Shown: positions 1-1,610 of the stretch, piece by piece | How positions within the stretch are numbered: the stretch's first letter is position 1 | How the letters are laid out: every line of letters begins with the position of its first letter | DNA from: Escherichia coli | GTDB lineage: Bacteria; Pseudomonadota; Gammaproteobacteria; Enterobacterales; Enterobacteriaceae | Direction: 5' to 3' (one strand) | Assembly (NCBI RefSeq): GCF_003334405.1 | Contig: NZ_QOWM01000042.1 | Length of the DNA: 1,610 bases | Notes under the pieces: model-generated | The model's input: the letters and a program-made list of their open reading frames with translations, nothing else | What the model was told of the DNA's origin: nothing | Database searches by the model: none | Made by a program: the position numbers and the translations under genes

Positions 1-1610
1 ACGCTGGCGCGGCTGTGGGGGGCGCTGCCGCCGGATATCCGGTTAAGCCCGCATCTTTACCTGGCGACCAACAGCGCACAGGGGCCGTGGTGGATACTGG
101 GGTGGTCTGAGCGGGTGCCGGGTGCTGAGGACGTACTGCCAGCGCCGCTGCCGCCGTACCGGGTGCTTACCGGGATGGCGGACCGCTTCGGGCGGACGCT
201 GACGTACCGGCGTGAGGCCGCCGGTGACCTGGCCGGGGAAATCACCGGCGTGACGGACGGTGCCGGGCGGGAGTTCCGTCTGGTGCTGACCACGCAGGCG
301 CAGCGTGCGGAAGAGGCCCGCACCTCTTCGCTATCTTCTTCTGACAGTTCCCGCCCTCTCTCAGCCTCAGCGTTCCCCGACACACTGCCCGGTACCGAAT
401 ACGGCCCCGACAGGGGTATCCGCCTTTCGGCGGTGTGGCTGATGCACGACCCGGCATACCCGGAGAGCCTGCCCGCTGCGCCACTGGTGCGGTACACGTA
501 TACGGAAGCCGGTGAACTGCTGGCGGTATATGACCGCAGCAATACGCAGGTGCGCGCTTTCACGTATGACGCGCAGCACCCGGGCCGGATGGTGGCGCAC
601 CGTTACGCGGGAAGGCCGGAGATGCGCTACCGCTACGACGATACGGGGCGGGTGGTGGAGCAACTGAACCCGGCAGGGTTAAGCTACCGCTATCTTTATG
701 AGCAGGACCGCATCACCGTCACCGACAGCCTGAACCGGCGTGAGGTGCTGCATACAGAAGGCGGGGCCGGGCTGAAACGGGTGGTGAAAAAAGAACTGGC
801 GGACGGCAGCGTCACGCGCAGCGGGTATGACGCGGCAGGAAGGCTCACGGCGCAGACGGACGCGGCGGGACGGAGGACAGAGTACGGTCTGAATGTGGTG
901 TCCGGCGATATCACGGACATCACCACACCGGACGGGCGGGAGACGAAATTTTACTATAACGACGGGAACCAGCTGACGGCGGTGGTGTCCCCGGACGGGC
1001 TGGAGAGCCGCCGGGAATATGATGAACCGGGCAGGCTGGTATCGGAGACATCGCGCAGCGGGGAGACAGTACGCTACCGCTACGATGACGCGCACAGTGA
1101 GTTACCGGCGACGACAACGGATGCGACGGGCAGCACCCGGCAGATGACGTGGAGCCGCTACGGGCAGTTGCTGGCGTTCACTGACTGCTCGGGCTACCAG
1201 ACCCGCTATGAATACGACCGCTTCGGCCAGATGACGGCGGTTCACCGCGAGGAAGGTATCAGCCTTTACCGCCACTATGACAACCGTGGCCGGTTAACCT
1301 CGGTGAAAGACGCACAGGGCCGTGAAACGCGGTATGAATACAACGCCGCAGGCGACCTGACTGCCGTTATCACCCCGGACGGCAACCGGAGCGAGACACA
1401 GTACGATGCGTGGGGAAAGGCGGTCAGCACCACGCAGGGCGGGCTGACGCGCAGTATGGAGTACGATGCTGCCGGACGTGTCATCAGCCTGACCAACGAG
1501 AACGGCAGCCACAGCGTCTTCAGTTACGATGCGCTGGACCGGCTGGTACAGCAGGGCGGCTTTGACGGGCGGACGCAACGTTATCATTATGACCTGACCG
1601 GAAAACTCAC
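1..1610 (+). CDS. rhs: Rhs-family YD-repeat protein, conserved core region (partial at both ends; internal fragment of a much longer ORF)
   Basis: Seen in sequence: frame 1 (position 1 = first base of a codon) is open through 1608 with no stop codon; I translated it codon by codon. Translation includes ...RYRYDDTGRVVEQLNPAGLSYRYLYEQDRITVTD..., ...TRSGYDAAGRLTAQTDAAGRRTEYG..., ...VRYRYDDAHSELPATTTDATGST..., ...TRYEYDRFGQMTAVHREEGISLYRHYDNRGRLTSVKDAQGRETRYEYNAAGDLTAVITPDGNRSETQYDAWGKAVS...MEYDAAGRVISLTNENGSHSVFSYDALDRLVQQGGFDGRTQRYHYDLTGKL. Established knowledge: this YD/RHS repeat signature defines Rhs/teneurin/TcC-type shell proteins, and the sequence matches my recollection of the E. coli-type Rhs core. 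Family-level symbol only; the paralog letter cannot be assigned from the core. True start and stop are outside the window. Confidence 0.93.
322..378 (+). other. Ser-rich low-complexity segment (TSSLSSSDSSRPLSASAFP) within the CDS; likely flexible linker preceding the YD-repeat region
   Basis: Seen in sequence: codons 322-378 translate to TSSLSSSDSSRPLSASAFP. The DNA here is a pyrimidine-rich tract (cacctcttcgctatcttcttctgacagttcccgccctctctcagcctcag) with T/A-ending serine codons (TCT, TCA), unlike the G/C-ending codons elsewhere. The linker function is inference. Confidence 0.5.
487..1608 (+). repeat. Array of ~17 degenerate YD (RHS) repeats, conserved at protein level, within the Rhs core CDS
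   Basis: Seen in sequence: consecutive units at approx 487-552, 553-624, 625-684, 685-780, 814-876, 877-942, 943-1005, 1006-1068, 1069-1137, 1138-1200, 1201-1263, 1264-1326, 1327-1395, 1396-1455, 1456-1515, 1516-1575, 1576-1608+. Each has an aromatic-rich start (RYxYD / YxYD / EYD) followed by G(R/D/Q)(L/V/M)(T/I/V). Unit boundaries are approximate. At nucleotide level the units are diverged, apart from short shared codon strings such as cgctaccgctacga. Possible additional RHS-like unit upstream at ~181-290 (FGRTLTYRREAAGDLAGEITGVTDGAGREFRL). Confidence 0.75.

Follow-up and report, generated by a model that had tools for sequence, protein, structure and literature searches.

The window, by which we mean the whole stretch of 1,610 nucleotides analysed here, is located within the rhsD coding sequence of Escherichia coli and opens at the first position of codon 154 (Table 1). 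The annotated rhsD gene is 99.9% identical to the window over 1610 nt, the closest deposited allele differs at about 2 of 1610 bases, and K-12 rhsD is 99.6% identical. The match lies within the rhsD CDS, which is flanked by ybbP and ybbC in the order ybbP-rhsD-ybbC. Frame +1 runs through 536 codons with 0 stops, and the differences between the window and its homologues fall mostly at codon position 3, as illustrated by rhsA with 91, 85 and 212 differences at positions 1, 2 and 3, respectively. The translation of this frame contains eight matches to Pfam PF05593 (RHS_repeat) with E<=0.001 and a ninth with E=0.0014, as well as 12 'YD' dipeptides, compared with 20 in the whole rhsD gene. The rhsD identity together with the RHS_repeat matches bears out the assignment of the sequence to an Rhs core, as proposed in an earlier note on this DNA.

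Ahead of the repeat array, the sense strand encodes a Ser-rich linker that coincides with a negative GC skew, and which is 9 nt longer in three alleles, owing to an insertion after nt 318, and 15 nt shorter in rhsA/B/C, owing to a deletion. The hyperconserved core-end motif PxxxxDPxGL is present as PLQQIDPMGL at rhsD residue 1249, outside the window, and marks a drop in GC content from 63.2% ahead of the motif to 36.5% past it. According to the annotation, rhsD is directly followed by ybbC, a candidate immunity-type gene of the YbbC/YhhH family, and by a pseudogene for an 'RHS repeat-associated core domain' that is truncated at its N-terminus. The overall arrangement is that of the E. coli Rhs elements of clade I (RhsD-E subfamily) described by Hill and colleagues and by Jackson et al. 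2009 (PMC2935791). The gene containing the window shares with these elements a near-identical rhsD sequence, the YD repeats, a GC-rich core of ~1250 residues that ends with PxxxxDPxGL and is followed by an AT-rich tip, and the presence of ybbC and an orphan RHS fragment downstream, with no substantive difference between them.

Table 1. Features of the 1,610-nt window, in window coordinates; minus-strand ORFs are labelled according to their probable nature.
Feature	Position	Strand	Remarks
rhsD CDS, internal part (codons 154-689 of 1426)	1..1610	+	Frame +1; GC-rich Rhs core
Ser-rich low-complexity linker (TSSLSSSDSSRPLSASA)	319..375	+	From translation; length varies between alleles/paralogues
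YD/RHS repeat array	499..1608	+	Pfam PF05593 RHS_repeat, residues 167-525
Probable shadow ORF, 168 aa, GTG start	57..563	-	Frame sharing wobble positions with the sense frame
Probable shadow ORF, 80 aa, GTG start	242..484	-	Start is GCG in rhsA/B/C
Probable shadow ORF, 98 aa, TTG start	367..663	-	Codon-aligned antisense frame
Probable shadow ORF, 138 aa, GTG start	679..1095	-	Codon-aligned antisense frame
Probable shadow ORF, 76 aa, GTG start	696..926	-	One stop in rhsA/B/C
Probable shadow ORF, 65 aa, TTG start	920..1117	-	Stop in 4/6 divergent rhsD-lineage alleles and in rhsA/B/C
Probable shadow ORF, 57 aa (under the 60-aa cut), GTG start	1102..1275	-	Start only in this allele
Probable shadow ORF, 73 aa, TTG start	1275..1496	-	In rhsA/B/C, start is CTG and stop is lost
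Probable shadow ORF, 3' part of a 240-aa codon-aligned ORF	1294..1587	-	Starts past the window end

The base composition of the window is strongly displaced towards G and C. GC content is 64.5% overall and 60-73% in 200-nt windows, with values of 65.1%, 51.9% and 76.7% at the first, second and third codon positions (GC1, GC2 and GC3), and within frame +1 the third positions consist of 42% G and 35% C. Thus, the hand counts of the earlier note, which had given ~63-68% GC and a predominance of G/C-ending codons, were accurate. Across 162 ordinary E. coli CDS, GC is ~52.5-52.9% (maximum 59.0%), GC1 60.9%, GC2 ~40.7-40.8% and GC3 ~56.2-57.1% (sd 6.4, maximum 73.3%), and 0 of the 162 reaches the GC or the GC3 of the window. 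The host is an enterobacterium of ~51-52% GC (51.8% in a 211.6-kb sample), such that the comparison with the genome average suggested by the earlier note returns a large contrast rather than a uniform composition. Recoding the protein encoded by the window with background codon usage yields 57.8% GC. Because GC2 stands more than ten points above its background value, ~40% of the GC excess can be assigned to an amino-acid composition rich in Gly, Arg, Ala, Thr and Pro, with the remainder arising from synonymous codon choice.

On the minus strand, the window contains exactly eight mutually overlapping ORFs of at least 60 aa, as had been reported. Their translations had been described as rich in Arg, Pro, Ala and Ser; these four residues do account jointly for 46%, but Val is the third commonest residue. 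At least one minus-strand ORF covers 84% of the window and at least two cover 57%, compared with 15-23% for the latter in the nulls. The count of eight exceeds the shuffle expectation of 4.1-5.1 (p 0.006-0.025) and is higher than in any of 26 background windows (maximum 7), which have the same length, are in frame and were placed within ordinary E. coli genes according to annotated gene coordinates. Both the count and the coverage by at least two ORFs lie above every null built (p 0.001-0.025), although the window was chosen because of its ORF count. The longest ORF, with 168 aa, is unremarkable under most nulls (p 0.17-0.41), with p reaching 0.034 under a block-wise synonymous shuffle. We considered and rejected the possibility that the excess is a general property of Rhs cores, since six other core segments from the rest of rhsD, rhsA and rhsC are at expectation. 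Heterogeneity in GC content within the window (70% at the start and 62% later) is also insufficient, as block-wise shuffles lift the expectation merely from 4.1 to 5.1.

The antisense frames had been termed stop-free, which is not what is observed. The three minus frames hold 21, 18 and 7 stops, and the total of 46 is nothing unusual among long E. coli genes: the 26 background windows contain a mean of 50.7 stops (sd 10.2, range 37-80), with 46% of them having 46 or fewer. Rather than being depleted, stops are more numerous than expected from dinucleotide shuffles (36.2), synonymous-codon shuffles (40.0) and block-wise synonymous shuffles (43.1), and the synonymous-shuffle expectation is exceeded in 7/7 Rhs segments. 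The same protein with background codon usage would be opposed by 55.6 antisense stops, indicating that the GC3 bias removes ~10. The suggestion that GC3 bias depletes stops on the opposite strand therefore holds for the reduction itself, from ~56 to 46, but not for the outcome, which is an ordinary number for E. coli genes, nor does it consider that C-ending codons create many stops, for example at CGC.TAC and ATC.ACC. High GC3 trims ~10 antisense stops without being the main cause of the ORFs. Far longer shadow ORFs are present opposite genes of ordinary GC content, namely, rpoB (962 codons), rpoC (803) and pta (756).

Each of the 46 antisense stops could be mapped to a sense codon or codon pair. 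In one minus frame, 18 of 21 stops are located at Tyr codons, and in another, 16 of 18 are a TCA that spans NTC.ANN. Every antisense stop corresponds to TTA, CTA or TCA on the sense strand, with a source that differs by frame. In the codon-aligned frame, only a TTA, CTA or TCA codon can produce a stop, and such codons are rare (7 in 536 codons), which explains why the frame is tiled by ORFs of 98, 138, 57 and 240 aa. In the other two frames, stops are generated by codon pairs that characterise the YD repeat, the first type being a C- or T-ending codon ahead of Tyr, for the most part CGC.TAC (Arg-Tyr), and the second ATC, GTC or TTC ahead of an A-starting codon (Ile, Val or Phe before Thr or Ser). 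Clustering of these stops at the repeat motifs leaves long gaps between the clusters, where several ORFs of 65-168 aa overlap across frames. We attribute the excess in ORF count and overlap, as an assignment rather than a proof, to the clustering of stops, to chance and to the selection of the window. The ORF count stands at the upper end of the range that composition yields.

A similar situation is encountered for the shadow ORFs of GC-rich or strongly codon-biased genes that work on ORF statistics has dealt with (e.g. PMC3454372). Long ORFs are likewise found opposite a real gene, the longest being in the codon-aligned frame, codon-aligned stops likewise come from rare sense TTA, CTA and TCA only, and the translations are likewise rich in Arg, Ala, Pro, Ser and Val and are sporadically mis-annotated as 'hypothetical proteins'. 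The window differs in that its total stop density is no lower than in ordinary E. coli genes, since stops are created by the Tyr-rich repeat in combination with the C-ending codons.

The minus-strand ORFs bear few of the marks of genes. With the 57-aa ORF included, 8/9 have a GTG or TTG start, and for 9/9, rhsA/B/C or rhsD-lineage alleles show an in-frame stop, a lost start codon or both. A consensus scan for Shine-Dalgarno (SD)-like matches of at least 5 nt found 0/9 for these ORFs versus 17/31 for annotated neighbouring genes, and a second one, for promoters, found no promoter-like site on the minus strand of the window. The promoter and terminator scans returned one promoter-like and one terminator-like site, both on the plus strand and at approximately the level of shuffles. 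None of the nine ORFs matched a family in an NCBIfam search, and an Rfam search of the window returned no relevant family. This agrees with the earlier note, in which the minus-strand ORFs are taken for a consequence of base composition rather than for genes.

The individual ORFs are broken in different ways. In rhsA/B/C, the 168-aa ORF carries two in-frame stops and has lost its start codon; upstream it has an SD-like GGTG of 4 nt only. It is intact in 7/7 rhsD-lineage alleles examined, a test with little power because these alleles are 93-99.9% identical. The 98-aa ORF has CTG in place of its start in 4/6 divergent rhsD-lineage alleles and one stop in rhsA/B/C. Strains S51, ETEC6333 and O157 H2495 have a stop within the 138-aa ORF, and rhsA/B/C have two. 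The start of the 57-aa ORF is GCG in K-12 rhsD and most other rhsD-lineage alleles, and GCT in 2013C-4282. Antisense amino-acid identity is 0.47 for the 80-aa ORF, where the sense identity is 0.79-0.81, and 0.32-0.35 for the 65-aa ORF, where it is 0.60-0.63. We note that in the wobble-sharing frame, antisense identity approximates sense identity by geometry and is thus uninformative as a test of selection. The ORF at 1294..1587 runs past the window edge, its full 240 aa corresponding to window-equivalent positions 1294..2016. It contains a stop in rhsA but is open in most homologues, and sporadic database entries of 62-234 aa record it as a 'hypothetical protein'. In total, some annotators have entered four of the minus-strand ORFs in public databases under the name 'hypothetical protein'.

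One alternative is that at least one minus-strand ORF is a real translated gene overlapping rhsD internally, for which the best candidates would be the ORF at 57..563 and the 240-aa ORF starting at 2016. Overlapping genes in antisense orientation are on record for E. coli O157:H7 (PMC9927249), and the number and overlap of the ORFs in the window exceed the composition nulls. The first candidate is unbroken in every rhsD-lineage allele examined; the second is open in most homologues and has been called by some annotators. However, the candidates lack an SD, a promoter-like site and a family match, their GTG and TTG starts are lost in homologues, stops occur in rhsA/B/C and in several rhsD alleles, and the ORF excess is confined to one segment. 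Moreover, the surplus of stops over the synonymous-shuffle level, which extends to every Rhs segment, is the opposite of what selection for open frames would produce. The rhs genes are unmentioned in PMC9927249, and nothing relevant was found in a literature search for rhsD antisense expression. The overlapping genes of E. coli O157:H7 and Pseudomonas aeruginosa (PMC9927249; PMC8850804) share with the ORFs described here the geometry alone, namely, an ORF embedded antisense in an annotated 'mother' gene. For those genes, promoters and transcription start sites have been mapped and both ribosome footprints and mutant phenotypes are documented, whereas the ORFs in the window are devoid of such sequence signals and broken in homologues. 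We consider a translated overlapping gene within rhsD to be very improbable, and it is scarcely credible that one of the two candidates (57..563 or 1294..2016) represents a young, lineage-restricted overlapping gene opposite the Rhs core. Instead, the window is almost certainly ordinary coding sequence for RhsD, a toxin-delivery protein of the Rhs type in E. coli, and lies within its GC-rich core, with minus-strand ORFs that are non-coding shadow ORFs set by the codons of the sense strand. We infer that none of the ORFs is expressed.

Horizontal acquisition is the classical view of Rhs elements, and the earlier note had interpreted the composition of the window as foreign and thereby horizontally acquired. 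The composition does deviate strongly, but composition alone does not establish horizontal acquisition, with ~40% of the GC excess being derived from amino acids. That the core owes its high GC and GC3 to horizontal acquisition from a GC-rich donor, as an unameliorated signature, is possible, if somewhat doubtful. A GC3 above that of all 162 background genes is consistent with such a donor, as is the abrupt fall to 36.5% GC past the core, which together with downstream genes of 28-31% GC makes the locus a compositional mosaic. The window is also patchily distributed, being matched in 3661/5426 complete E. coli genomes and thus without a match in about one third, and a Kosakonia plasmid Rhs displays the same contrast (63.5% vs 51.7%). 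Furthermore, distant Rhs genes are low in GC in low-GC hosts, and therefore the fold itself does not call for high GC. By contrast, Jackson et al. 2009 describe rhs as an ancient family at the core of enterobacterial genomes, often gained and lost but only occasionally transferred laterally, the lineages of which mostly predate the Enterobacteriaceae and the composition of which varies with the host genome, and they credit patchy distribution mainly to gain and loss (PMC2935791). An ancient resident gene would be expected to have ameliorated. Nor is an integrase, tRNA or transposase annotated within 20 kb on either side of rhsD in NZ_CP039298.

Alternatively, the GC3 excess could be actively maintained within the genome, either by GC-biased gene conversion among recombining rhs copies or by a lineage-specific codon preference, which we regard as unlikely. 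Rhs cores are multi-copy, occupying a median of 3 places per genome and up to 8, with roughly 11,800 places homologous to the window across the 3661 matched genomes, and rhs elements are known recombination substrates by name and history (PMC2935791). The near-identity of rhsA, rhsB and rhsC to each other across the window would be compatible with ongoing conversion, and an offset above the host recurs in Serratia (core 67.7%; PMC2935791), Kosakonia and Pantoea. However, distant Rhs genes in low-GC hosts are offset by merely 0-6.5 points, in a sample of six plasmid loci.

Collectively, the GC-rich rhsD core and its shadow ORFs are real but ordinary, and all of this is already known biology. 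Descriptions of the GC-rich Rhs core and its AT-rich tip go back to the 1990s, and shadow ORFs on the antisense strand are a familiar nuisance in annotation. The biological weight of the ORFs is small, and their practical value is one of caution, with four already deposited as 'hypothetical proteins'. The intuitive rule that high GC leads to few antisense stops fails for this window. The composition of the window bears on the question of why enterobacterial Rhs cores keep a GC3 ~20 points above that of their hosts, if the family is ancient.

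Frame +1 of the window runs without a stop across 536 codons, with 7–23 stops in each of the remaining five frames, and its translation contains eight matches to the Pfam family RHS_repeat (PF05593) at E ≤ 0.001. The top megablast matches to the window are annotated as rhsD and share 99.9% identity, and megablast places the window in 3661 of 5426 complete E. coli genomes, with a per-genome median of 3 locations. In NZ_CP039298, where rhsD is flanked by ybbP and ybbC, the window corresponds to nt 460-2069 of the rhsD CDS (4281 nt), its first base being the first position of codon 154. 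The end of the RhsD core is marked by the PLQQIDPMGL motif at residue 1249, and the GC content is 63.2% upstream of this motif compared with 36.5% downstream. This layout follows the classical Rhs architecture described in Jackson et al. 2009 (PMC2935791), in which an A+T-rich extension succeeds a G+C-rich core. The genes directly 3' of rhsD are extremely AT-rich, such that the locus forms a sharp compositional mosaic.

The high GC and the predominance of G/C-ending codons that the earlier note had counted by hand are correct, with the window reaching 64.5% GC (60–73% per 200-nt window) and 76.7% GC3 (G 42%, C 35%). The proposed contrast with the host is also real, and the refuting outcome named in the earlier note, a genome-wide GC similar to that of the window, does not hold: GC is 51.8% in a 211.6-kb background sample comprising the rhsD neighbourhood and four K-12 regions. 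Among the 162 annotated CDS of this sample, GC averages 52.5% (sd 3.4, maximum 59.0%) and GC3 56.2% (sd 6.4, maximum 73.3%). GC1 is 65.1% in the window versus a mean of 60.6%, and GC2 is 51.9% versus 40.7%, a value equally high in 1 of the 162 genes. Because the window protein recoded with background codon usage has 57.8% GC, the protein's richness in Gly/Arg/Ala/Thr accounts for about 5 points of the ~12-point excess and synonymous codon choice for about 7.

While the contrast stands, the step from 'compositionally foreign' to horizontally acquired is insecure, and no mobility genes are annotated beside rhsD in NZ_CP039298. Jackson et al. 2009 (PMC2935791) concluded that rhs genes form an old family belonging to the enterobacterial core, often gained and lost but transferred laterally only on occasion, and reported that within one clade their base composition varies between host genomes. 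Among six plasmid-borne, distantly related Rhs genes, a small sample, those from the low-GC hosts Acinetobacter, Lactococcus, Stanieria and Pseudoalteromonas (loci L016, L017, L018 and L019) have 38–44% GC, differing from their neighbours by between about −2 and +6.5 points, so the fold itself does not impose high GC. The E. coli offset recurs in Kosakonia (63.5% versus 51.7% GC; GC3 79% versus 57% in neighbours) and Pantoea (58.8% versus 53.1% GC). In this six-gene sample, high GC is thus a property of enterobacterial Rhs lineages, which is compatible with a foreign origin or with a maintained bias, for example through conversion among multiple copies. We note that rhsD also occurs in NZ_CP069916.1 (3781-5388), a 19-kb entry whose label is Klebsiella oxytoca plasmid, with a window protein 99.6% identical by tblastn; actual transfer, wrong assignment of a chromosomal contig and contamination are possible explanations.

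The antisense frames, previously described as stop-free, contain 46 stops (21, 18 and 7 per frame). By comparison, 75 are expected in uniform random sequence, 55.6 ± 4.8 for the same protein with ordinary E. coli codon usage and 50.7 ± 10.2 (range 37–80) in 26 in-frame 1610-nt windows from 24 long E. coli genes. The GC3 bias does deplete antisense stops, removing about ten, but the resulting density is ordinary for E. coli, yet above that predicted from the window's own composition by dinucleotide (36.2), global synonymous (40.0) or block-wise synonymous (43.1) shuffling.

All 46 antisense stops map to TTA, CTA or TCA on the sense strand. In the codon-aligned frame, which is in register with the sense codons, all 7 stops fall on rare codons, namely TTA (4), CTA (1) and TCA (2). 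In the frame sharing wobble positions with the sense strand, 18 of 21 stops arise where a Tyr codon follows a codon ending in C or T. Most of these are CGC.TAC or CGC.TAT, encoding the Arg-Tyr step of the RYxYD repeat motif, and the stops are frequently paired 6 nt apart. Within the third frame, 16 of 18 are TCA spanning ATC/GTC/TTC/CTC and an A-starting codon (Ile/Val/Phe/Leu before Thr/Ser/Ile). Many antisense stops are thus generated by the preference for C-ending codons itself. The stops concentrate at repeat motifs and are few in the Tyr-poor, 70%-GC first 500 nt, where the 168-aa ORF is located; such clustering would create more stops and also more long gaps. Such stops are seen at window positions 603-696, 1074-1080 and 1158-1275 and throughout, and likewise in rhsA and rhsC. 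Each of the seven Rhs core segments analysed in rhsD, rhsA and rhsC has more antisense stops than synonymous shuffling predicts (for example, 50 versus 40.8, p=0.003), the reverse of the outcome from selection for open antisense frames. Codon pairs that recur in the YD repeat, namely CGC.TAC (Arg-Tyr) and ATC/GTC.ACN, appear to cause the excess, which may represent a codon-pair or repeat-motif effect.

The count of eight overlapping, Arg/Pro/Ala/Ser-rich minus-strand ORFs was exact: eight ORFs of at least 60 aa (65–168 aa) are present besides one of 57 aa, at least two ORFs overlie 57% of the window, and these residues make up 46% of the products. Eight exceeds the expectation under global synonymous shuffling (4.1, p=0.006), block-wise synonymous shuffling (5.1, p=0.012), block-wise codon-order shuffling (5.1, p=0.025) and protein recoding (3.3, p=0.001), as well as the 26 background windows (mean 3.4, maximum 7). 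The length of the longest ORF does not stand out against most nulls (p 0.17–0.41), with p=0.034 under block-wise synonymous shuffling. The remaining rhsD core and either half of the rhsA and rhsC cores are at expectation, with p 0.47–0.79 for count and 0.38–0.84 for overlap in block-wise shuffles and a lowest count p of 0.048 in the global shuffle. Since the excess is limited to one segment, the window was flagged for this very feature and several ORFs barely exceed the 60-aa cut, we treat it as a fluctuation. Codon-aligned shadow ORFs opposite the K-12 genes rpoB, rpoC and pta, which have ordinary GC, far exceed in length any ORF opposite the GC-rich Rhs window.

A GTG or TTG start is used by 8 of the 9 minus-strand ORFs, and none has an upstream Shine-Dalgarno-like match of at least 5 nt, compared with 17 of 31 annotated neighbours. 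No promoter-like site was found on the window minus strand, no family by an Rfam search and none by an NCBIfam search of the minus-strand ORFs. In a codon alignment of the window with six divergent rhsD-lineage alleles (93–98% identity), K-12 rhsD and the paralogues rhsA/B/C (about 76%), sense differences accumulate at codon position 3 (91/85/212 versus rhsA). Stops arise already within the rhsD lineage in ORFs 679..1095 and 920..1117, and start codons are lost there in 367..663 and 1102..1275; across rhsA/B/C, 6 of 9 ORFs acquire in-frame stops in at least one paralogue and 7 of 9 lack the start codon. Antisense amino acid identity falls to 0.32–0.55 versus 0.60–0.81 for sense, except in the wobble-sharing frame, where the geometry forces the two identities to be equal. 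ORF 1294..1587 (97 aa) is the 3' portion, cut by the window edge, of an ORF that in the genome has 240 aa and is followed by a 353-aa ORF. Exact translations of 57-563, 367-663, 1102-1275 and 1294-1587 (minus) have been deposited in public protein collections under the name 'hypothetical/uncharacterised protein' from E. coli or Shigella, on 2–38 contigs each, with cluster members of 62–234 aa for 1294-1587. As very few of the genomes with this DNA have such an entry, the four entries are probably spurious gene calls reflecting sporadic over-calling. We found no literature report of antisense expression in rhsD, and the published set of EHEC overlapping genes that was checked does not include rhs.

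The Ser-rich linker of the window varies in length, with a 9-nt insertion (CGTAAACAG) after nt 318 in some rhsD-lineage alleles and a 15-nt deletion in rhsA/B/C. The terminator-like hairpin at its start is probably due to chance, since one such site was observed versus 0.6 expected.

Features in the window and in compared loci (L001, the locus holding the complete rhsD; L014, L015 and L021, further loci)
Feature	Location	Strand	Remarks
Ser-rich low-complexity linker TSSLSSSDSSRPLSASA	window 310-375		negative GC skew
Terminator-like hairpin GAAGAGGCCCGCACCTCTTC, then T-rich tail	window 310-329	+	sequence scan
240-aa ORF	L001 21294-22016	minus	codon-aligned
353-aa ORF	L001 22101-23162	minus	codon-aligned; inside rhsD downstream of window
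ybbC	within L001 23862-25411		downstream of rhsD; 30.6% GC
Orphan RHS fragment	within L001 23862-25411		downstream of rhsD; 44.1% GC
Two hypothetical genes	within L001 23862-25411		downstream of rhsD; 28.0% and 36.2% GC
Kosakonia plasmid Rhs	L021 10438-15018		adjoins VgrG
rpoB shadow ORF, 962 codons	L015 (K-12 4150001-4200000) about 32297-35183	minus	opposite highly expressed gene
rpoC shadow ORF, 803 codons	L015 about 37038-39447	minus	opposite highly expressed gene
pta shadow ORF, 756 codons	L014 about 14677-16945	minus	opposite highly expressed gene

Thus, the earlier observation was numerically right except for 'stop-free', and its interpretation holds for the Rhs core, the GC contrast and the shadow ORFs, but is overstated as regards stop depletion and horizontal acquisition. 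Judged from its sequence, the window is best read as part of a known gene whose unusual composition is likewise known; its shadow ORFs appear trivial, and it is of low interest.
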